DNA from: Massalongia carnosa
Taxonomy: Eukaryota
Length of the DNA stretch: 64,000 bases
NCBI GenBank assembly: GCA_965645245.1
Contig: OZ287067.1
Span: 1,674,001 to 1,738,000, forward strand
Direction: 5' to 3'
Position numbers and translations under genes: made by a program. A model generated the notes under the pieces. That model made no database searches, had not been told where the DNA came from, and saw nothing but the letters and a program-made list of their open reading frames with translations. Position 1 is the stretch's first letter, and each line of letters starts with the position of its first letter. Shown here one piece after another: positions 7,584-60,021 of this stretch.

Positions 7584-8723
7584 ATGCCTTTCGCCTACTT
7601 ATTCTTGCCTACATTCAACAAGTCCGTGCCCCCAAATAACAATCCTTCGGCGTCTCGTGGTTCCTCCAGGAAACGAAAGAGAGGAGATCCCGGCTCAATT
7701 GACGTCCTTGATAATCATGACAACAAGCTGGAGAGCAGTATCCGATCAAGGCAGTCCCCAGCTAATATTAAAACATTCGCAGTCGTTGGAAGCCAGCCTC
7801 AGTGGGTTGAACAACTGTTGGATCAAGGTTTATTTGGAAAAAATTATCCTCATAGGAGGCAAAGCTGCAACGTAGCTATTGCTGTATCGAAGCTTCTCGA
7901 CGAAAATCAAAATATTCTTGAAGAAGTACCGCCGTTGACACCAAAAGGAAGGAGGCCTGATAGAGACATATCCGCGTCTGATGCACCAAAAACGTTTGGT
8001 TTTCGCTACCAACATCTGGCGGCTTTGACAACGATATTACACAGGTGTATTTCAGAAGGGGACTACCTTCGGGCCGGAAGAGCCTGGGGGATACTTCTTC
8101 GAGCTCAAGTGAATGGACATGATTTGAATCTAAGAAATGATGGTCGGTGGGGAATTGGTGCTGAGATTTTGTGCCAGCGGCACCCACAAAAAACGGGGGA
8201 ATCTTCGGCACATCAAGAAGGAAGCGTAATCACCAAGAAAATCAATGACCAGGAACCAAACTTGGTAAGACACATGAGGACATACACTAGAGAAGGGCTC
8301 GACGAGGCTCGGAATTACTACGAGAGAATCATACTGCAATACCCCTATCATAAAGCATTTCCTAACGCTGTGGGTGCTATGAATTTCTATCCGGCCATGT
8401 TTGGTCTTTGGATATACTCTAAGCAGGAAGAATATGAAGCATCAATAGCAAAAACCCCAAAGTCGGCTATGGATAGTGACCAGTATCGTCGGAGAACCCT
8501 TGATACCAGTAAGGGGGATCACTCACCCATCCCCTCACCCAAAGGTCACCCAAAACTAGCAGAGGCGCGGAAGGCCCTTTTGAACGCTGGAGAGCAAATA
8601 GCAGATCGCCTAGATAAACTTTTAGTCTCTCCACCATTCTCGGATGATCCCAGACTTTTGAATTTACGAGAAATGGTAGCTCGGTGGGTTGAGAATCTTG
8701 CGGTCGCTGTCATTTCTCCGTAG
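7584..8723 (+). CDS. RRN11: RNA polymerase I-specific initiation factor Rrn11-like protein
   Basis: 379-aa ORF with HLAALTTILHRCISEGDYLRAGRAWGILLR..RWGIGAEIL and ARNYYERIILQYPY, which I recognise from fungal Rrn11-family proteins. Confidence 0.65.
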   Translation: MPFAYLFLPTFNKSVPPNNNPSASRGSSRKRKRGDPGSIDVLDNHDNKLESSIRSRQSPANIKTFAVVGSQPQWVEQLLDQGLFGKNYPHRRQSCNVAIAVSKLLDENQNILEEVPPLTPKGRRPDRDISASDAPKTFGFRYQHLAALTTILHRCISEGDYLRAGRAWGILLRAQVNGHDLNLRNDGRWGIGAEILCQRHPQKTGESSAHQEGSVITKKINDQEPNLVRHMRTYTREGLDEARNYYERIILQYPYHKAFPNAVGAMNFYPAMFGLWIYSKQEEYEASIAKTPKSAMDSDQYRRRTLDTSKGDHSPIPSPKGHPKLAEARKALLNAGEQIADRLDKLLVSPPFSDDPRLLNLREMVARWVENLAVAVISP

Positions 8724-12754: not shown

Positions 12755-14051
12755 TATCAAGTCTTTTTCCCTGACTTTCCCGCGCCCCACAGGTCTCCGG
12801 AGCCATTCACAGAAGCTATGTACTACATACCTTCGAATTGCCGGAAACGCCGTCCAAAGCCAAAGTGCATGTATAACTGGTAGAGGGGCCTGTTCTACCT
12901 ATCTATATCCCATATCCAGGGTCTGTCTACACGTTATCACCACAAAGAGAAAATATCGCGACTTTCTCCAATCTTGCTTCTTGTCTCTTCACCCCCCTAT
13001 CTATTTATTTCGGAAGGAAGAGAGATGGGGGAGATTGAGAGATGAAAGAAATGTAGAAAAGTAAGAGGCCCCCTTCAACTCTGAACGAGAATGATGATTG
13101 ATTTTTTTATTCTAACCGCCTCATTCTCTTCCTCCGCTTTTACTTTTGTCATCTTCTTTTATTTATCATTTCCCTCTCTCTCTCTTTTTGTAATCTAATC
13201 TAATCTTCTCAAGTCCAGCCAGTTAGTTGGTCGATTCATTACTTAGTCGATTGTCTTTCTTGCTAGCCTAGTTGACTCGATAGATAATTGATTGATTAAC
13301 TGATCGTTTCTCTCGTTCTCCCGTTCTGTCTGCCTAGTCAAAGTATCCATCAGTCATTCACCCGTTGTATCTTTTCTTTACGTTTAACCGACTTCTTTTA
13401 TTTTTTATTTCTCTCTTTCTATTCTCTTCCTACTCTGTTTTAACTCTTCATTTCCTCAACAATTGCTCATATCATTTCATCTTGATATTTCCTAATTTAT
13501 TCAATTCTCCTCTCCTTATACATTCTGTCACGGACAAGGTCCAGATAGGGAGATATGCAAGAGTTACTATTAGAAAGCTAGGTCTAGGGATAGTATACAA
13601 GACGTCCGACGAAGAGCTCCAAACACCTGAGAAACCACATAGGTTTTATAGCCATGGCTTCCAACTCCCCTATTCTTGACTTGCCCTCATCTCTGTTCCT
13701 GTTCTAATTTCCTAACCATGATCGCTTTGACCTGTTCCGCCTTTCTCCATGCCGAAGCAATCTCTCTCTGCTGGGCAATCCCAGTCGTAGGCTTGGATAG
13801 TGGAGACGTTGAGATTGGATTCGGGATATAGGAGTTTGGGAGTGCACTGAAGGCAGCGGAAGAACGTCTGAACACATGGGGTGAGGTTTCAGGATAGTTC
13901 GGAATAACGGGCCACGGTTCCATTCAACATGCAGGGCAGGTTTCACGGCAAGAGAGCCTGTTAAATACTAACCCGATCAGGAAACGTGGGAGGGTGCGAG
14001 GTAATTCCATGACAGTAGGTCCCTCTTCAAGGCGGAGCTCCTGCGATGCTA

Positions 14052-17000
14052 CTATTCCTGGCAGCGGCAACGGGGTAGATTGCAAGGGGTGTGATGTGGT
14101 CCGGCAGCTGTGGGGTAAGCCTGATGATATTCGTTTAGAGCTTGCTGACAGTTGGTTAGGAAATTGAAAGGTTCCCATGTGGGATTGTGACCTTCCCAAT
14201 TAACGAAATATTGAAGGAGTGGAGGTTGAAATCGTCGGTCGTATTTGAAGTTCAATACGCTGTTCACATACCATTCTCGCTGTCCGTCTTCTGCTTCGAC
14301 GGGTTCACGAGGGGCGGGATGCTGGCCAGGAAGGGGGTCATCTGCTTCATGCTGCAGAAGGTTTGCATGGAAAACTGGGTGGATCTTGACACCAGGAGGA
14401 AGCTCCAATTGTATCACTAGAGGGTTTGAGAAAACTCGACTGACCGCATAGGGTCCGATGTTTCGATCGTCTAACTTGACGGTGGGTCTCGCTGTTTGAA
14501 GATTCTTTGTGTTTAACCATACCATATCACCCACTTTATAGCGGGGGCATGGTCGGCGGTTTGCATTGGCAGTGGATTCATAGATGGCTTGAGCGATTAA
14601 CATTTCATCATGAAGATGAGTTTCTAAGTCTCTCATCCTGTCCGCGAACTTATTAGCTGCGATCAGATTATTTCGACTTTGAGCGGTAATGTCCGTCGGG
14701 AGAGGCTCGGAGGGTTCGAATCCTATACGGGGGTGTTGACCAGAATTTGCTAGAAATTGCGAAGCAAGATTTGTGGAAGAGTCCGTATTACTAGCCGCGA
14801 ATTCAGCGCCTGGTAGCCACTTGGCCCAATCATCCTGCATATGGTTGACATAGGCTCTAAGGTAATACTCCATGGAGGCGTTGGCTCGTTCTGTCTGGCC
14901 ATCGGTTTCCGGGTGGTATCCGGTGGACAACCGTGTGTCGATTTTTAGCCGCTTACACAGCAATTCCCATAGTTCCGATACGAACTGCGAACCTCGATCT
15001 GATACGAGAACATCAGGTAGGCCATGATGCTTCCATACATTCTGATAGAAGGCATCTACGGCTTCTTCGACTTCCATGGATGTGACTGGAGCCAGATGGC
15101 GCATCTTGGTTAGGCGATCTATGAAAACTAGAATGTACCGATAGGTGATTCCCATGAAGGTGCTGGCCGAGAGGGGTCCGACATAATCCATAGCAACATC
15201 GCGCCAGCGACGCTCAGGTGGAGGTAAGGGCCTAAGCCACCCTTGATAACGTTCACGGGAGGGTTTGGCTCTTTTGCAGACATGGCAGTTTCTGACGAAT
15301 CTTTGCACCGTTTTGTGCATGCTAGGCCACCAATAGGAGCGACTGATGAGTTCATAACATTTGGCACGGCCTGGGTGTCCACCTGCGACACTATTGTGAG
15401 CGAGTTGTAGGATTCTTAGGCGAAGGCTATCTGATTTGGGTACGTATTGTCGATTTCTGAAGTACAAAATCCCATTTCTGTCTTCGCACTCTGCTAGTTG
15501 TATACCGCTATGATATCTCGATCCGTTTCGAAGCATTTCTAGAACACGGGTTGAAAACTTATCTCTATCCAGGGCTCGGTTCCAAAGGTCCTGAGTGGCC
15601 ACGTCCATTGGGTCATCGTCGGGGTTTAGCTGATCAGTAACTAAATCTAGTTGGGGTTCTTCATGATCCGTCTCTGTGTCATCATCCTCGTCAAGATCTT
15701 GTTCTTGATCAAGAATAGCAGGAGCGAGCACTATGGGGTATGGGGAGGTTCCAACCATGGTTGAATTGAAGCTCTCGGCTACTCCGTCGTCTAGGTTATG
15801 CGTTTTCAGTATCGTCTGATGCTGAAATGAGTTCCGCTCATCGGTTTCATCCCCTTCTTCAGGGAGGTCTCCTGACCGTCGAGTTAGGGCATCCGGTTTA
15901 CCGCCGGCTCTCCCAGGTCGGTAGACTATCTTATAGTCGAAGCGAGATAGAAACTCACTCCATCGGGCCTGGCGCCGACTCAAAAGCTTGGTAGAGGTGA
16001 AATATTCCAGGTTCTTATGGTCTGAAATAACATCGATGGGTTGAGCGGAGCCTTCTAGTTCAGGTCTCCATTCCTCGAAAGCTCGAACTATGGCCATGAG
16101 TTCTTTGTCATAGATCTCATAGTTACACTCGGCAGGGTTATGCTTTTTCGAGAAGTATGCGACGGGACGCAAGATATCTTTTTCATCATATTGCGATAGG
16201 ATACCCGCCGATACAAAGTCGGAGGCGTCCGTTTCGACCACGATTTTCTTGTCTGGATCAAAGTGTATGAGAATAAGATCGGAGGTAAATGCTTTTTTCA
16301 TCGTATTGAAGGCTTGTTGACAATCGCTAGTCCAGGAGAATTTCGTTCCCTTCTTGGTTAGGTTCGTCAACGGCGAGGCTATTTTACTGAACCCCAATAC
16401 GAAACGCCTGTAGAAATTGGCGAATCCTAGAAAGCTTTGAACATCCCTAACGTTAACGGGCGCAGGCCAATTGATGACGGTATCGATCTTGGCAGGATCC
16501 ATCTTGACTCCCTTAGTAGTGACGATGAGACCCAAATAGGGGACCTCGGTGACTCCGAAGGCGCACTTGGTGATGTCCGCTTGGAGTCCGGCCTCTCTGA
16601 GTTTGACAAGGACTTGTTTTACATGTAGGTCATGTTCGATTTCGTCATCACTATAGATGAGGATGTCATCTAGATACGCGGTGCAGAATCTATCTAAGTA
16701 TTCCCTCAGGGTGTCATTGATATAATGTTGAAACGAGGCAGGTCCGTTACACAGACCGAAAGGCATGACAAGATATTCGTAGAGACCGAAACGAGTCCGG
16801 AAAGCAGTAAGTTCTTCGTCTCCCTCTTTGATTCTTAGGCGATTGAATGCTGATATAATATCCAACTTGGTAAATATCTTGGCTTTGCACAAACGGTTGA
16901 GGGTCTCGGTGATTAGAGGTATTGGATAACGATTTTTTATGGTGACAGCGTTTAGTCCTCGGTAGTCGACGCAGAATCGAAGTCCTCCGCCGGGCTTCTT

Positions 17001-18437
17001 AACAAACATAACCGGGGAGGCTGCATGTGAGCGGCTAGATCGAATGAATCCTTTTGTTAGATTCTCATCTAGATAACGACGAAGTTCCTGGATCTCATCA
17101 CGACTCATCCCGTAAAGAGCTTGATTAGGTGGTTGAAAACCTTCTTTTAAGACGATGGCGTGACCATAGGAGCGGTGTTCCGGTAGTTTATCGGACTCCT
17201 TTCTGGAAAAGACATCTAGGTAGTCGTGGTATTGCTTTGGAAGCAGAGGTGCCGGGTCAACGTTCTTTTGCTGCCGAGCGTGCTCAAGTTCTTCTTGAGT
17301 GACGGAGGTTTCTAGGGTGAGTTCATTGTGCATTCTGCAAATGGCTAGGTGCATGTCCTTATCACTTGGACAGGCCTTAGTGTTAAATGGGGGGAAAACT
17401 TGGGTTGCTATTAACTTAATAGATGACCTGGAGCTAGGGCTAGGGGGTTTTAAAGGCGATTCTATACCTAAGAACCGGTCTATTTCTTGGAGGGAGATAC
17501 TGAATATCTCGTGGTCCTTCTGTCTTGCGAGGCGGTCAAATGTGCCGGCGCTCACCTCACTGACTCGAAGCTGGGCTAGGTAGGTTGGTGCGGATTCAAC
17601 CGCGGTTAGTTTACTGAGCAGGGGGTTTGAGGTATGTAGGCGAGGTGCTAAACGAACGTAGCTCCCGGACCGGTATCGGATCCTAGGGGAGACGCCTTTT
17701 TGCATGGCAGTTAGGATTCGACTGGGACCGTCTTCAGCCTGAAAGTCAAATTTCGATGGTTCTGTTTGACAAGATTGCAGAATGGTTTCTTGATCTTTAG
17801 TCTCCCATACCTTCTGACTTTCGGCAGGCATAAGGAACTGTTCTTCCTCGGCGGTGGTTGAATGAACCATTACGGGGCCGGGACAGCAATGTGCTAGGCA
17901 AAATGGGGAGGATAATGACAGGGTATTATTGGCGAAGTTAGTGATAGCGCCATGTCGACGCAGCCATGGGTGTCCTAGGACGATGGGGTAATGTCTTAAT
18001 CCGGTCACATATAGGAACAGTTTCTCTATGTGTCCATTGAGATCCATGGTTACTTCTGCCACATGGGTGATGTTTCCGGTCAGAGCAGGCTGACCATCGA
18101 AACCTAGGAGTCGGCGAGGGTATTTAAGGGGGTGAAGGGGGAATTGATGAAGGTGCGCGAATTCTTTATCGATGAATAAGTAACCTGATGCACCACAGTC
18201 CACGAGAAGTAAAGCTCTTATCCTTGCTTGCAGACGACGTAATATACATGAGACAACCATATGGCTGTCTTTGAAAGTTTCATCGTTTTCAAACAAGGTC
18301 AAAGCGGACGCTGCAGAAAAACGAGCGTTGGACATTAGGGGGGGTGAAAATGATGCAGAAAGGAGACATGCAGAAATCAATAAATCAGACTTTCGAAGCC
18401 CTCGTATGCGACTGAATACGGGGCTCAGGCTTTTCCC
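14052..18437 (-). CDS. pol: Gypsy Pol: protease, RT, RNase H, integrase, chromodomain
   Basis: [28 protein letters not shown] zinc finger, DDE (SDRG..ER), GPY, chromodomain (YFVNWEG..PTWEP). Frame is open back to the GGGAAAA slippery site. Confidence 0.95.
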   Translation of the reverse strand, partial: GKSLSPVFSRIRGLRKSDLLISACLLSASFSPPLMSNARFSAASALTLFENDETFKDSHMVVSCILRRLQARIRALLLVDCGASGYLFIDKEFAHLHQFPLHPLKYPRRLLGFDGQPALTGNITHVAEVTMDLNGHIEKLFLYVTGLRHYPIVLGHPWLRRHGAITNFANNTLSLSSPFCLAHCCPGPVMVHSTTAEEEQFLMPAESQKVWETKDQETILQSCQTEPSKFDFQAEDGPSRILTAMQKGVSPRIRYRSGSYVRLAPRLHTSNPLLSKLTAVESAPTYLAQLRVSEVSAGTFDRLARQKDHEIFSISLQEIDRFLGIESPLKPPSPSSRSSIKLIATQVFPPFNTKACPSDKDMHLAICRMHNELTLETSVTQEELEHARQQKNVDPAPLLPKQYHDYLDVFSRKESDKLPEHRSYGHAIVLKEGFQPPNQALYGMSRDEIQELRRYLDENLTKGFIRSSRSHAASPVMFVKKPGGGLRFCVDYRGLNAVTIKNRYPIPLITETLNRLCKAKIFTKLDIISAFNRLRIKEGDEELTAFRTRFGLYEYLVMPFGLCNGPASFQHYINDTLREYLDRFCTAYLDDILIYSDDEIEHDLHVKQVLVKLREAGLQADITKCAFGVTEVPYLGLIVTTKGVKMDPAKIDTVINWPAPVNVRDVQSFLGFANFYRRFVLGFSKIASPLTNLTKKGTKFSWTSDCQQAFNTMKKAFTSDLILIHFDPDKKIVVETDASDFVSAGILSQYDEKDILRPVAYFSKKHNPAECNYEIYDKELMAIVRAFEEWRPELEGSAQPIDVISDHKNLEYFTSTKLLSRRQARWSEFLSRFDYKIVYRPGRAGGKPDALTRRSGDLPEEGDETDERNSFQHQTILKTHNLDDGVAESFNSTMVGTSPYPIVLAPAILDQEQDLDEDDDTETDHEEPQLDLVTDQLNPDDDPMDVATQDLWNRALDRDKFSTRVLEMLRNGSRYHSGIQLAECEDRNGILYFRNRQYVPKSDSLRLRILQLAHNSVAGGHPGRAKCYELISRSYWWPSMHKTVQRFVRNCHVCKRAKPSRERYQGWLRPLPPPERRWRDVAMDYVGPLSASTFMGITYRYILVFIDRLTKMRHLAPVTSMEVEEAVDAFYQNVWKHHGLPDVLVSDRGSQFVSELWELLCKRLKIDTRLSTGYHPETDGQTERANASMEYYLRAYVNHMQDDWAKWLPGAEFAASNTDSSTNLASQFLANSGQHPRIGFEPSEPLPTDITAQSRNNLIAANKFADRMRDLETHLHDEMLIAQAIYESTANANRRPCPRYKVGDMVWLNTKNLQTARPTVKLDDRNIGPYAVSRVFSNPLVIQLELPPGVKIHPVFHANLLQHEADDPLPGQHPAPREPVEAEDGQREWYVNSVLNFKYDRRFQPPLLQYFVNWEGHNPTWEPFNFLTNCQQALNEYHQAYPTAAGPHHTPCNLPRCRCQE

Positions 18438-19638
18438 GCTGCATCGTCAGAGGCGTCGGAGTCGTTGTAAAGGACAAGAGACCGAATAGTAGACGGGGCC
18501 TTCTTGTTGGGACAGTCGATTGCGGTCTTCCCAGGGTGCGATTGCTTACAGTAGAAGCATAGTCTCCATTGCTCGCAGATTTCCTTGACTCCGGGGACTT
18601 TCAGGCTTTGGCCTTTCACAGCGGCCATGGCGGAGCTGAGGTCCATCGGATCCCCTGCGGGAAGAGAAGGAATCGCAGCAGGGGTGACGGCTGGAGCGAC
18701 GACGATGGTGGAGGAGCGGGGGGCAGGACTCCTGACAACGGCAGTGGTGGTGGCGACGGATGCCCCCTTTTTAGTTGAGGAGTTGCTAATTGATGCTCCA
18801 GAGGTTTGGCGTGGCGAGATATGCCTGATTTGACGAATTTTTCGATCCGTTTGGGCCCACATTGCAACATGTTCGTCGAAGGTGACGGGCTCCTGATTGG
18901 TTCCGGGGACTCGATAATGGATGGCCGCTGTTTGGGTGGAATAGTTGATGTTGGCCTTCATCGCATCGATGAGGGAGGCGTCTTCCATTCTAGATCGTTC
19001 CTTCTTCTGAGAGAAAGGTTGTAATATTCCTCAAAAGTTAGGTTACCCTGTTTCAGGGTGTCTCGCAAATATTTACGGGCATCCTCTTGCTCGAAGGGGT
19101 TACCACAGGCCAGACGAAGTTTCGCTCTCCAGTCCGAAAAAGAGGTTAGGCGGCATAAGCCATCTATCCGGTAGGGAGTCATGAGCAGATGGGCTCGCTT
19201 GCTGATGGTGAGTCTACTCTCCGCATAAGCTATCTTGGCCTCATCGGAAAAGTATCGGTCATGGTTAATGTGCATTTTTTGAATTAGATTCTGTTCCCAA
19301 GCATCGAGTTTGTCCTCGTCACCGTCATACTCCGGTATGTCAGGAAGTTTCTCGGACCTGGGCGGAAACGCTGGTCGTTTCATTAGCTGTTCTATAATGG
19401 CGGCCAGCTGGGAGCTCGGAACGGAAGAAGAAGGAGTTGATGACGGGGTTGCTAATAATGGGTTAGGAGACGTTTGATTAATGGCTGGAGGAACCGCGTT
19501 TCGAATCTCAGCTAATTGTCGTTCCAGGTCTCGATAGGCGGCGATGAACTCGTCCGGGTTATTGCTGACATGTTCTCGCTCCTTTTGGGCTAACTCAGGT
19601 TCCTGAGGCAGATTTGCGGTTTCTTCTTGAAAAGACAT
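18425..19638 (-). CDS. gag: Gypsy Gag, split by a 1-bp deletion near 19015
   Basis: ORFs 18958-19647 and 18425-18988. The paralog at 45140 reads AACCTTTTCTCTCAG versus AACCTTTCTCTCAG here. PMDLS motif and Cys knuckle present. Confidence 0.9.
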
Positions 19639-55653: not shown

Positions 55654-56215
55654 GGCCACATCACTGCTGGGAATTGGAAACTACAAAGGAGACAAAAATT
55701 TGCCGAGAATTATATTAAAGACCTGAATTATAGACTAGAGCCTGCCGCAAGACAAGAGTGGGAATTAAATCAAGATACTAGCCGGTTGGGGATTCGAGGT
55801 ATTGGTAGTCCAAAGCAAAAATAGAGATTTAAATGAGCAACAGGAGCGTATGTTCGTAAAAAAAGATGTAAAGGAATTGATTAGTAGCGATATCAAACAG
55901 TCATTTTAGAGCTTTTACTAATTCCTTTTGCAAAGAGATGTAACCTGGACCAGCTCTTAACAAGTAAACTCCCCTTACTAGATTAAGAAGACAGAGCCCC
56001 CGCGCATGCATCTAAATATCAAGATAAATTATTTCGGTTACACGATATTATGCGACTTTTATGGCCGGGAAATTCTCCGGACGGGAATATGATTGAGCCG
56101 TATTGGCCATGGATAAAACGGACAACAACTAAAAAAGTTGCTACTCGAACTCGAAGAGATGCCAAGGAACGTTAGAAAACAGCTTGGGATAACCTATCGC
56201 AGAAACTCAATTAAA
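55654..56215 (+). mobile_element. Tc1/mariner transposase C-terminal relic
   Basis: EDRAPAHASK..LLWPGNSPDGNMIEPYWPWIKR. Confidence 0.7.
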
Positions 56216-57315
56216 AATTTGCGAGCAAAACTCCTTGGTGGTCTTGTAAAAGAGGGAGACCGCACACCTATCGAAAAACAAGTACCGCAACTTTTGATAC
56301 TCTATAACTTTAAAAGTCAATTGAGCCTCTATTTCTCAGTCATTTGAGCTCCTCTAGAGCAAAAACGCCCTCAGATTGAGTGTAGGAGAGCTCTAGCAAA
56401 GCTCCAGCAGAGTTTTTCTACTGGTCGCACGCGACCGACGTGATAAAGCGCGCTCTAGAAGTTGGAAAAAACAACAAATACCCACAACATCACTAAAAAT
56501 CGCTCTTTTTTCTTGTTCTCTTCTGTTCTATTGTTGCAAGACCTTCAATTACTACTATAAGAATTATCTAAAAAAAATATCTTCTCTCGCGGTACTGTAC
56601 AACAACTGTCGCGACGTCAAAGTCTTCCAAAGTTTATTCCTCATTTAAGGTTACGGGAACTTCCGCAAGCATAAATTTTCACAGTCACGCGGGGGACTAA
56701 AAAAAACCACACCAAAATTTAACCGGGCTTAACTCCCCACCAAAACACAATTAATTTACATACGATTTGATGGGATAATTATTATTATTATAAATTATAA
56801 ACATATCGAGACTCCTACCAAAGCTAAAATTTAGGGAGCCGTGGAATTTTGCGAAAAGCAAGGCATTTCTTATCACAAAGAGGATGTTTTTCGCACATTT
56901 GATGTGGAACTTACGAGGGGCTATATATACATGCGTAAAGGAGCCTTATCACGCCGTTATCATAATAATTCCGATTTTTTATTTTATTTATTCATTAAGC
57001 GTATGCATCCTTAGGATATGACGCTGTGACTGCTATTTATATACATAAACAACAGTCCGGAAGTGGAAAACTGGCCCCCAGGGTAAAACCACTCCCTTTT
57101 ATTCCATATTGAACGCAACGAGATCGTTCTTCTACCACGCGGTGCATACACCCAGATATTCAAGCGCTAGGAATCCTATAGACCCGATGAACTAGACAGT
57201 GTATCTCCACACGTTCGACGAACATTCTCTCTCTTTAACCGTTTTGGCTCAATAGATGATAGACTGGCCATGATCGAGGGCAGATCGTGGTGTCGTATAA
57301 ATGAAGATGTGAAAA

Positions 57316-57637
57316 TGTGGCCATTCCGAATGAATGGGCTTTTTCGATGAGGTGAGAGGCTTCCGCCTGGGGGGTGTGGCCATTCCGACTGAATAGACTT
57401 TTTCGATGAGGTGAAAGGCTTCCGCCTGGGGGGTGTGGCCATTCCGACTGAATGGGCTTTTTCGATGAGGTGAAAGGCTTCCGCCTGGGGGGTGTGGCCA
57501 TTCCGACTGAATGGGCTTTTTCGATGAGGTGAAAGGCTTCCGCCTGGGGGGTGTGGCCATTCCGACTGAATAGACTTTTTCGATGAGGTAAAAGGCTTCC
57601 GCCTGAGGGGTGTGGCCATTCCGAATGAATGGGCTTT
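57316..57637. repeat. 59-bp tandem array (~5.4 copies)
   Basis: Units start at 57316, 57375, 57434, 57493, 57552, 57611. Confidence 0.95.
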
Positions 57638-57718
57638 GTATGCCTTCGAAGTGATGAATGATCAGTAGAGACGTTGATCATTCAAACGGCCACCGAGGTG
57701 GGCTTCAGCGTTGGCGAT

Positions 57719-57790
57719 GATCAGATATTGGCCACCTCCGAGGAGGTGTTGATAGCCTGCACCACGTAGAGGTTTCTGACCTAGCAGGCC
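57719..57790 (-). ncRNA. HDV-like self-cleaving ribozyme (predicted)
   Basis: GGCCUGC-UA-GGUCAGAA-ACC-UCUACGU-GGU-GCAGGCU-AU-CAA-CACCUC-CUCG-GAGGUG-GCCAA-UAUCUGAUC maps onto P1, P2, P3, L3, P4 and J4/2 of the nested double pseudoknot. Confidence 0.8.
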
Positions 57791-57963
57791 ATAATAAGTC
57801 CGATGTTTCTGAAGCTCGTAGGCGTCACAAAATTGTTACGCCTAAATTGATTAGAGAAATAGAACGGTTATTGGAAGAAGGTATGGAGGCACGCGCTCTT
57901 ACATGGGAGCAATTGGGCTTCGAAGTAGGCTTAGACTGCAGTGGCAAAACCATTCAACGAATC

Positions 57964-58979
57964 TGTAAGAGTCAGACCTGGCAATTATCAGACACCAGGC
58001 ATAGGGATATGTGACAATGTGAAGACACTAATGATTTGCTATACTAATATACTAAAAGAAGTATATATGGAAAGCGGAAGACTAATCGTTGAAGATTGCA
58101 TCTCCCTCGAGCAGCCTCCTTATATACCCGGACCGAAGCCCTTGACCCTTTGGGCCCTTGATACTGTAACTATCTTGACCGCCTATTACTCCTAACGGAT
58201 AAGCCGGCTAAACACTCTGCTGACTGCATCGTAGATACTGTGCTCACTGTATCGTAGACACTCTGCTGACTGTATCGTGGACACTGTGCTGACTGTATCG
58301 TACCATCCGCTCACTAATCGTACGAGCATCCTCGTATATCTCGATCGCTCGTACTATACTCTCGGTAGTAGATACCAGCCGCGTAACGCAGACCAACTGC
58401 TTTCCATATGACTATATAAGAGGGACAGTAGACACTAGTCCTTATGGGTTATAATGCTCAGTGTGACTGCTAATAGATTGGTAGGTGCTAAAGCTAAAAG
58501 CTGATTCCCTGAAGATGGGAATCGAGCTTTCTATATACCCCTTGGGGTCCTATTTACTAACTACTTGTCTGGTTACCTGTCTGCCTTGTTGCCTTCAGCT
58601 GAGGTCTAGTAGATAGCCTTGCTGCCTTCAGCTGAGGTCTAGCAGATAACCTTGTTGCCTTCAGCTGAGGTCTAGCAGATAGCCTTGTTGCCTTCAGCTG
58701 AGGTCTCCTAGGCGTCCCAGGCCTCCCATGAGATCGAGGCTTATCTGAATAGATTCAGTTGCTGCCTAACAAACTGGTAAGGCTGATTGCTGATGGCTTA
58801 GTATTGCTATCCGCCTTATCATGACTAAGCATCCGGATTATCAGTCACCCGGTCTTCTTGGGTGAGTCATCCCAGGAGCTAGCGCAGTCCTGTATTGCCG
58901 GGCTATTACAGACTAAGCCTAGCCGTAGAACTAAGCCCCGCTTAGTTAGCTTAGCCCTTATTCCTTCTATGCCCTGACA
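57964..58979. mobile_element. Solo LTR with 23-bp tandem repeats, split by another solo LTR
   Basis: TGTAAG..CTGACA ends, TSD GAATC. Confidence 0.85.
58415..58910 (-). mobile_element. Solo LTR (inverted copy of 31539-32034)
   Basis: TSD GACTA; near-identical to the 31539 copy. Confidence 0.9.
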
Positions 58980-60021
58980 GAATCATGGGTACCATGGATT
59001 ATTACAAATGCATTGCGTGCAGAAAGGGATGGGTGAACGAGAAGACAAGAAATCTTCGTATGAAGTAGTCAGATGCTATGCTTTCTAGATATCCAAATGC
59101 AGAAGACTAGATACAAGTTCGATTTAGCGACGAATTGCACTTTAGATGGGGACCTCAGGGCAAAGTATGCATCATACGAAGATTAGGTGAACGTTATTGT
59201 TATGATTGTATTCAAGAAGTAGATGAACCAGACGAGGCCGTCAAGAAGAGACATTATTGTTGGGCTGCTGCAGGTCATGACTTCAAGTCCGATATCTACT
59301 TTTACAAAGTTCCAGGAAACTTCAATGGAAAGATAAGTCAACGAGTCTATATCGACTCTATATTGGAGCCTATTGTAAAGCCCTAGATTGAAGCAAAACA
59401 CGATTTCGTCTTAGAAGAAGACGGTAATTCTGGATATAGACTAGGCAAATCAAACATTGTACGTGCTTGGAAGCAGAACAACGATCTGAAGCACTATTCA
59501 ACTGTCAATATTTACCTGATTTGGCCCCCATAGAAAATTTCTGGCAGGCCCCGAAGCAATATTTAAAAGAATATCCTCATTGGTATGACGATACGACCAA
59601 GGGGCTAGTTATGAGGGGTAGGCGAACGTTTCCCAGGCATTTATTAATGAACGGGTGTCTACTACGCCACATAGATTTAGAGCTGTTTTGGATTGTGAGG
59701 GTAAAATGACTGGTGATTGAGAAGATTGAATGAATTTGATGACTGGTTGTTGAAATAGTGATTATCCTATCATAATTGTATGGAAATTGCTTGTGTTTTG
59801 GTGGGGGGTTGAACCCGGTTAAATTTGGGTGTAGGTTTTTTTTGTCCCCCGCGTGACAGTATATTTCACGTATAATTTTTGCACATTCCATTTTTGGCTT
59901 TATCGATCTTCGTTGAAGGGCCGGTCAACAGATCATTGAAAAGAAGGGGAAAAACGTCTGGAATAGGATAATACCAAAGGTCCTGTTTCAGATTAATCAG
60001 AATAGGAAGTCTCGTATTATC

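Follow-up and report, generated by a model that had tools for sequence, protein, structure and literature searches.

HDV-like ribozymes release the RNAs of the R2 and L1Tc retrotransposons, and RTE and baggins elements are also associated with such ribozymes (PMC6765202). NARTc, which is non-coding, 263 nt long and a partner of L1Tc, cleaves at +1 (PMC3185411; PMC3383444), and the SIDERs bear the same ribozyme hallmark (PMC4035085). In NARTc, RIME and SIDER elements the first ~77 nt constitute an HDV-like ribozyme that cuts 5′ of +1, and the trypanosomatid sequence, Pr77, also acts as a promoter. The Drosophila R2 SIDEs combine a 5′ ribozyme with a 3′ end, the latter being that of a LINE, and they are moved in trans; in R2/R1 hybrid SIDEs the ribozyme module is joined to the tail of another element, and the target-site duplications (TSDs) are 14 bp long (PMC3414825). 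From fungi, 230 variant HDV ribozymes in 26 species and 11 canonical ones have been described, with two shown to cleave (PMC5640933); the main text of that report notes “widely variable gene associations” and contains no words beginning with “transpos” or “repetitive”.

Here we report an 815 bp element, located on the minus strand at 56976-57790 of the window (the whole 64,000-nucleotide stretch of DNA that was analysed), which we consider likely to belong to a high-copy family of non-coding, non-autonomous non-LTR retroposons in an ascomycete, probably a lichen-forming one; its RNA would be released by a ribozyme at its head and mobilised by a LINE. The element is inserted in a repeated, putatively Tc1-like transposon and is laid out as follows.

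56835..56975, plus strand: host ORF piece upstream of the insertion, ending ...SRRYHNNSD, in a degenerate repeated Tc1/IS630-like transposon (ORF list, contigs, Atlas)
56962..56975, minus strand: 3′ TSD copy, ATCGGAATTATTAT, one mismatch (sequence inspection and 14-mer search)
56976..56997, minus strand: A-rich tail, 22 nt, TAATGAATAAATAAAATAAAAA, just after the terminal hairpin
56998..57315, minus strand: unique 3′ region, with three hairpins in its last ~100 nt, the terminal one at 57025-56998
57316..57637, minus strand: tandem array with a 59-bp unit, 5.5 copies at 95% matches
57638..57718, minus strand: 81-nt linker, polymorphic among copies (contig alignment; some contigs lack it or carry other sequence in its place, starting exactly at 57719)
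57719..57790, minus strand: predicted HDV-like ribozyme of 72 nt, expected to cut 5′ of G1 (57790) (RF02682, 31.4 bits; model R1, 50 bits; pair check)
57791..57804, minus strand: 5′ TSD copy, ATCGGACTTATTAT (sequence inspection and 14-mer search)
57790..58011, plus strand: host ORF piece downstream of the insertion, HNKSDVSEARRRHKIV... (ORF list, contigs, Atlas)

The boundaries of the element are defined by its target-site duplication. Read on the minus strand, ATCGGACTTATTAT (57804-57791) lies immediately 5′ of GGCCTGC..., so that G1 (57790) abuts the duplication as the original prediction had stated, while at the other end the tail ...AATAAATAAAATAAAAA finishes at 56976 and is followed by ATCGGAATTATTAT (56975-56962). 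In the whole 64 kb, these two flanking sites are the only matches to the 14-mer at up to one mismatch, against 0.01 expected (100 shuffles). The duplication that had been described as 14 bp does flank the element, with its copies 13/14 identical; a G is also present right after the 3′ copy, so the TSD of this copy could equally be 15 bp and G1 could derive from the target. We assign G1 to the element because of the ends of contigs across the family, which are described below. The second hallmark that had been noted, a 3′ hairpin followed by an A-rich tail, was found in the form of the terminal hairpin at 57025-56998 and the 22 nt at 56976-56997, and the element thus combines a TSD and an A-rich 3′ end with the lack of a reverse transcriptase or endonuclease ORF (ORF translations and Pfam), as in the non-autonomous non-LTR retroposons of the NARTc, SIDER and R2 SIDE kind. 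BLAST found no second copy of the element in the 64-kb window and matched just the internal tandem array.

The surrounding reading frame gives a second view of the insertion. On the plus strand the host ORF stops at ...SRRYHNNSD (56975), and reading past the insertion continues with HNKSDVSEARRR..., so that removal of the element together with one TSD copy restores a single host frame. Insertion-free copies of the host repeat exist in sequencing runs X1, X4 and X5, in which contigs carry ...CACGCCGTCAT fused straight to 57790 onward. The original prediction held that excision restores the frame of a transposase; the continuity of the frame stands, while the identity of the protein is hinted at by a DDE_3 match in the downstream host sequence (59440-59706; Pfam E = 0.048 at a loose setting) and by Atlas leads for the host ORF to IS630/Tc1 HTH transposases at 0.90-0.92, with no Pfam match to the host ORF pieces at 0.01. 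The host repeat may therefore be of Tc1/IS630 type. In content the window is fungal: HRQ1, ECM11 and Rrn11 are among its domains, and Ty3/Gypsy pol regions occur three times; all reverse transcriptases within the 64 kb are Ty3/Gypsy, and none is of the LINE or other non-LTR kind.

Between its head and its tail the element appears to be non-coding. All three sense frames are open throughout the 59-bp array, and the ORFs so produced, which gave sub-threshold similarity to DUF5588 (E 0.001-0.005 versus a 30-bit cut-off), were treated as repeat artefacts. The last 125 nt of the element fold into three hairpins at -38.7 kcal/mol (z = -4.25), a value equalled by none of 200 shuffles. In being short, non-coding, non-autonomous, rich in A at its 3′ end and present in many copies, it resembles NARTc, RIME and SIDER (PMC3185411; PMC4035085; PMC3383444), and the HDV-like ribozyme known at the head of those elements is here predicted from the 72-nt sequence. 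Unlike these elements of protozoan hosts, it resides in a fungus, has a longer body (815 bp) and contains the 59-bp tandem array. With the R2 SIDEs (PMC3414825) it shares a 5′ HDV-like ribozyme and the lack of an ORF; however, R2 SIDEs are site-specific for rDNA and rare, whereas the fungal family is dispersed and abundant.

The family can be followed in public data, as 18 of 20 sequencing runs contain at least part of the element; the 20 include three organisms and lichen metagenomes, and none is recorded as RNA. Contigs from four runs were aligned to 57638-58190 (771 from X1, 54 from X4, 113 from X5 and 8 from X6); X1 could be the sample that the window itself comes from, and the other three come from other studies. 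Counted among the best-supported 21 of 108 end rows from these assembled contigs, matching stops just beyond 57790, that is at G1, in at least 36 contigs (15, 5, 13 and 3 in X1, X4, X5 and X6, respectively) and just beyond 57791 in at least 15 (5, 4 and 6), the latter count being close to the one quarter that would match at one extra base by chance. Within the same best 21 of 108 rows, 3 contigs have other ends inside the element (57778 and 57788). Flank agreement beyond 57790 is low (0.39-0.59), indicating mostly unlike flanks. In X1, X4 and X5 the ribozyme reached 4.8-13 times the summed depth of the host flank, which is all but missing from X6; relative to the 76 nt that follow, its depth was 1.4-4.2 times as high. 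Such summed contig depths are not copy numbers. The element is therefore shown to be a high-copy family, with G1 as the common 5′ end in four runs. The original prediction had proposed examining whether copies start at G1, and in this comparison extension 5′ beyond G1 is not the rule for the family.

This common end bears directly on the view that the 72 nt merely look like an HDV ribozyme and that the element is an ordinary retroposon or the tail of a 5′-truncated LINE. The ends of at least 51 contigs, spread over four runs, fall at G1 or at the adjoining flank base, which excludes random truncation. Two points speak for a chance resemblance, namely that the whole-window E-value of the best Rfam match is just 0.063 and that, by our estimate, the topology alone is easily found in random sequence. 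Against them, the match covers the entire Rfam model (1-74 of 74) and begins on the very base that abuts the TSD, and the core 13-mer, the AUCAAC junction and the GGCYAA motif equal those of the covarying class of metagenome ribozymes described below. We regard this explanation as highly improbable, and return to the reading of the 72 nt as an HDV-like ribozyme, whose predicted parts are the following.

57790-57784 with 57760-57754, minus strand: P1
57781-57775 with 57725-57719, minus strand: P2
57773-57771 with 57763-57761, minus strand: P3
57770-57764, minus strand: L3, UCUACGU
57753-57749, minus strand: J1/4, AUCAA
57748-57733, minus strand: P4
57732-57726, minus strand: J4/2
57731, minus strand: C60, the candidate catalytic cytosine, aligned with the C in GGCuAA, a consensus motif of both Rfam HDV models

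The hand fold given in the original prediction was borne out in every helix when pairing was checked by script: P1 is paired at 7/7 positions (G1-C7 with G31-U37, including the G1-U37 wobble), P2 at 7/7 (G10-A16 with U66-C72), P3 at 3/3 (A18-C20 with G28-U30) and P4 at 6/6 (C43-C48 with G53-G58). The helices form the nested double pseudoknot of the HDV type, with P1 around P3 and P2 across P4; the nested P1, P3 and P4 were aligned by cmscan and cmsearch, and this nested part has a folding energy of -26 kcal/mol (z = -2.4). It had also been foreseen that P1.1 would be a single U-A pair, and U23-A38 alone does pair (1/2 pairs by script), leaving C22 and U39 unpaired. In HDV itself P1.1 consists of two pairs, and in other HDV-like ribozymes a P1.1 of one pair can slow cleavage; the catalytic C of HDV ribozymes acts as the general acid. 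The catalytic C that the prediction placed in J4/2 has a candidate in C60, as GGC60-C-A-A aligns with GGCuAA of RF02682 and RF00094, and L3 UCUACGU holds U21 and G26, matching the conserved U and G of the L3 reverse wobble, and is the same as the RF02682 consensus L3, UCUaCGU. Both the catalytic role of the J4/2 cytosine and the importance of the L3 guanine are documented for HDV-like ribozymes (PMC3774820).

Searching with Infernal and HDV-like models, as had been suggested, gave matches that begin and end with the proposed ribozyme. RF02682 (HDV-F-prausnitzii) aligned over its full length, positions 1-74 of 74, to exactly 57790-57719 with 31.4 bits (E = 0.00099 in a 1-kb search and 0.063 in the whole-window search), and RF00094 (HDV) matched at the same place with 26.6 bits. 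Both scores fall under the gathering scores of 44 and 50, respectively, and Rfam run at gathering score over the whole window returned no matches. No match to CPEB3 was found in Rfam at E up to 10, and HDV-F-prausnitzii is the closest Rfam model. The window ribozyme agrees with the RF02682 consensus in its P3/L3 core, ACCUCUACGUGGU, and differs from it in having AU where the consensus has AGG. Like the ascomycete variants (PMC5640933), the window ribozyme has an extra nucleotide between P2 and P3, here A17; however, those variants are described as carrying C-G where cleavage takes place and as having a loop E within P4, whereas the window ribozyme has a G-U pair and an unbroken 6-bp P4. By these features it appears to fall outside the fungal variant class of Li and Breaker 2017, with which it shares the extra nucleotide alone.

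Relatives of the unusual junction were sought in metagenome contigs using a pattern in which P3/L3, CAAC and GGCNAA were fixed, with no constraint on P1, P2, P4 or the two bases preceding CAAC. The exact 23-nt core was found at 0 loci, and the element family was thus not found in that collection, while the relaxed pattern gave 43 matches at 41 loci. P1 was paired at 7/7 positions in 23 of these matches, at 6/7 in 6 and at 5/7 or fewer in 14. One of the last group (L037) was later recovered by the covariance model; most of the remaining matches with P1 at 5/7 or fewer look like chance matches in coding DNA, and probably are. As MAFFT put P1 out of place in 11 of 21 sequences, covariance model R1 was built from 12 well-aligned metagenome sequences, with the window excluded and P2 outside the model. 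R1 matched the window at full length, again at exactly 57790-57719, with 50 bits (E 5.2e-10), the next best match scoring 10.7 bits; this score is partly circular because the pattern was derived from the window ribozyme, and it is the Rfam match that is independent.

Re-aligning the window and the metagenome loci by R1 gave 30 rows, 26 of them distinct and none dropped (alignment A3), in which P2 of the window is one column out of register and was therefore checked by script. Pairing was found in 93.5% of cells versus 30-46% with the partners slid, and the covariation score was 0.782 versus 0.197 in shuffled alignments (0/500 as high). Both-sided changes occur in 6/7 pairs of P1, in 5/5 counted pairs of P2 and in 5/5 counted pairs of P4; the covariation comes from unrelated metagenome sequences and none of it from copies of the element, in whose family the ribozyme is nearly invariant. 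The junction AUCAAC occurs in 27 of the 30 rows, namely the window and 26 metagenome matches, and since these matches share the junction and their helices covary, we take the AUCAAC form to be a natural, structurally constrained ribozyme subclass, which eases the concern over a single U-A pair in P1.1. The same relatives put the Rfam scores into perspective: among the 11 RF02682 matches listed for them scores range from 35.1 to 44.8 bits, and 10 of these 11 (35.1-43.6 bits) lie under the gathering score of 44, so clear covarying ribozymes also score low on this model and the sub-threshold score of the window is no evidence against membership.

Five of the AUCAAC metagenome ribozymes sit exactly at tRNA 3′ ends, starting one base after the tRNA, in tRNA arrays. 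These tRNA-adjoining ribozymes share the core and AUCAAC with the window ribozyme; they differ from it in that they appear to be bacterial or phage and to process mRNA or tRNA, and are not retroposon heads. Theta ribozymes also adjoin tRNAs (PMC10879173), although the published ones are minimal and lack P4, which the window ribozyme has. Two other metagenome ribozymes have no adjoining tRNA: no long ORF lies downstream of the first (L008) on the ribozyme strand, and L038 is the second.

These comparisons also bear on the idea of a relic, in which the 72 nt would be a true HDV-like descendant rendered inactive by its weak P1.1, with the 5′ end inherited from a few master copies. The single pair of P1.1 and the two Rfam scores below gathering can be read this way, as can the near identity of the ribozymes within the family, which recent amplification from a single master would likewise give. 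However, AUCAAC is retained in the 26 covarying metagenome matches, five of them at exactly the tRNA ends where cleavage would be useful, the adjoining body is split into common variants while the ribozyme is not, and an exact common 5′ end in copies made by target-primed reverse transcription (TPRT) requires an RNA that starts there. We consider a relic improbable. Taken by fold and core, the 72 nt are supported as an HDV-like ribozyme, for which we infer self-cleavage.

Conservation within the family separates the ribozyme from what follows it. There are variant sites at 2 of its 72 positions, both at ~1% or less in X1, and one of them (U37 to C) retains the pair; the 81 nt that follow vary at 10 sites, of which four reach 41-79% (Fisher p = 0.035 versus the ribozyme). 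The ribozyme is therefore shown to be more conserved than the adjoining 81 nt. In the contig alignments, the body is replaced or deleted starting exactly at 57719, the last base of the ribozyme, in four X4 contigs and at two joints in X1; the joints run from 57663 and 57679 to 57719, and loose contig ends also occur before 57719.

In a further alternative, an internal promoter at +1, like Pr77, would mainly set the 5′ end, with the ribozyme only trimming read-through RNAs or separating tandem copies. This has a precedent in L1Tc and NARTc, whose first 77 nt are internal promoter and ribozyme alike (PMC3383444), and as the flanks 5′ of G1 are unrelated among copies, any promoter of the family must lie inside the element. 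However, a +1 promoter makes the strong conservation of the ribozyme harder to explain, and the expected signals are lacking: no A box was found in the sense strand, the search for a B box gave just one B-box-like word, with 2 mismatches and inside the ribozyme, ARAGORN found 0 tRNAs in the element, and Rfam gave no match to a tRNA, 5S, 7SL or other small-RNA head at E up to 10. On balance we think it unlikely that a promoter mainly sets the 5′ end. The same searches agree with the original prediction that the element has no tRNA or 5S head, and qualify the name of SINE that it was given: the element is indeed non-coding and non-autonomous, but without a pol III head the term is used loosely, and “non-autonomous non-LTR retroposon”, of the NARTc or SIDE type, fits better. 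In origin the element may be an internally deleted LINE (a SIDE) or a composite.

We therefore return to ribozyme release as the favoured account of the element, for which we infer catalysis, read-through transcription and a LINE partner. A genomic copy would be transcribed inside a longer RNA from any promoter upstream, and its first 72 nt, a canonical-type HDV-like ribozyme as predicted here, would fold into the nested double pseudoknot and cut the bond 5′ of G1, leaving a product RNA that begins exactly at G1 with a 5′-OH. The reverse transcriptase of a LINE would then use the 3′ hairpins and the A-rich tail for target-primed reverse transcription, with a staggered nick giving rise to the 14-15 bp duplication, and a full-length cDNA would bring the ribozyme to the new site, making the copy releasable again wherever it lands. 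Judged from its sequence and position, the ribozyme thus probably trims the element's RNA precisely to G1 ahead of its conversion into DNA.

The evidence supports a mechanism already known elsewhere, now in a host group new to it, the fungi, and would extend the strategy of ribozyme-released retroposons from insects and trypanosomatids to these organisms. No fungal retroposon that begins with an HDV-like ribozyme was found in the literature searched, which lacks most subscription journals. A fungal HDV-like ribozyme is here given a defined place, base 1 of an abundant retroposon, together with a proposed job, which suggests that the fungal HDV ribozyme catalogue (PMC5640933) is worth re-examining for retroposon heads. 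For genome annotation, the analysis defines a family of transposable elements that tRNA-based SINE finders would miss.

A broader and decidedly tentative proposal, which we hold to be possible though doubtful, is that the 72-nt ribozyme serves as a portable module at the 5′ end of several unrelated retroposon bodies in these probably lichen-forming fungi, including an autonomous LINE. If so, there would be a class of “SINEs” that live from pol II read-through and need no promoter of their own, and the inconsistent gene association of fungal HDV ribozymes could be explained. The core and one-pair P1.1 would also be common to bacterial or phage trimmers of tRNA 3′ ends, the same minimal solution then occurring in two domains.

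In some of the metagenome loci (L numbers) retrieved by a pattern scan fixing P3/L3, CAAC and GGCNAA, HDV-like ribozymes with the junction AUCAAC and a one-pair P1.1, as in the ribozyme of the element, lie at the 3′ ends of tRNAs:

L002:4982-5062, plus strand, AUCAAC-type ribozyme at a tRNA 3′ end
L012:3196-3271, minus strand, the same
L030:4991-5066 and 7699-7774, minus strand, the same, two copies
L035:561-634, minus strand, the same

In all five cases the ribozyme starts exactly 1 base past the tRNA 3′ end, as placed by the Rfam tRNA match, and the host contigs carry dense tRNA arrays. These ribozymes resemble the published theta ribozymes of phages; however, theta ribozymes are minimal and lack P4, whereas those reported here are full-size and carry it. 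A second AUCAAC-type group consists of near-identical ribozymes repeated across many contigs with no adjoining tRNA (L008, L009, L016, L017, L023-L025, L029, L032, L034, L036, L037 and L041), with P1 formed by CCUGAAC/GUUCAGG and variants, in surroundings that look prokaryotic.

The element itself sits among clustered, degenerate fragments of Tc1-like DNA transposons, in a region with these intervals:

55987-56175, plus strand, Tc1-like piece (DDE_3, E 4e-6)
58212-58302 and 58583-58706, further stretches of this region
59111-59706, plus strand, Tc1-like piece

The host transposon copy also contains tandem arrays, of 23 bp and 33 bp. The host sequence flanking the element at 56946-56975 (plus strand) differs at 4 of 30 bases from insertion-free copies (loose-end consensus of contigs from X4 and X5, sequencing runs from other studies). 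At three of these positions the window copy shows a C-to-T or G-to-A change, a pattern that would fit RIP-like decay of the host repeat.

Within the element, one ATG-started frame begins 38 nt past the ribozyme and crosses the 59-bp tandem array:

57235-57681, minus strand, open frame of 148 codons

All three sense frames are open across the array. Because no Pfam family was found for the 148-codon frame, it is probably an artefact of the stop-free repeat unit.

Elsewhere in the window, 13009-13192 (plus strand) matches the plant MIR2118 precursor of Rfam at 36.8 bits (E 0.0018), below the gathering score of 85, and this match is most likely spurious. Three Ty3/Gypsy pol copies are present, the two uninterrupted frames lying in opposite orientation and each encoding RT, RNase H and integrase:

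14052-18446, minus strand, uninterrupted pol frame, 1464 codons
34758-39164, plus strand, uninterrupted pol frame, 1468 codons
48098-50885, plus strand, third pol copy, split
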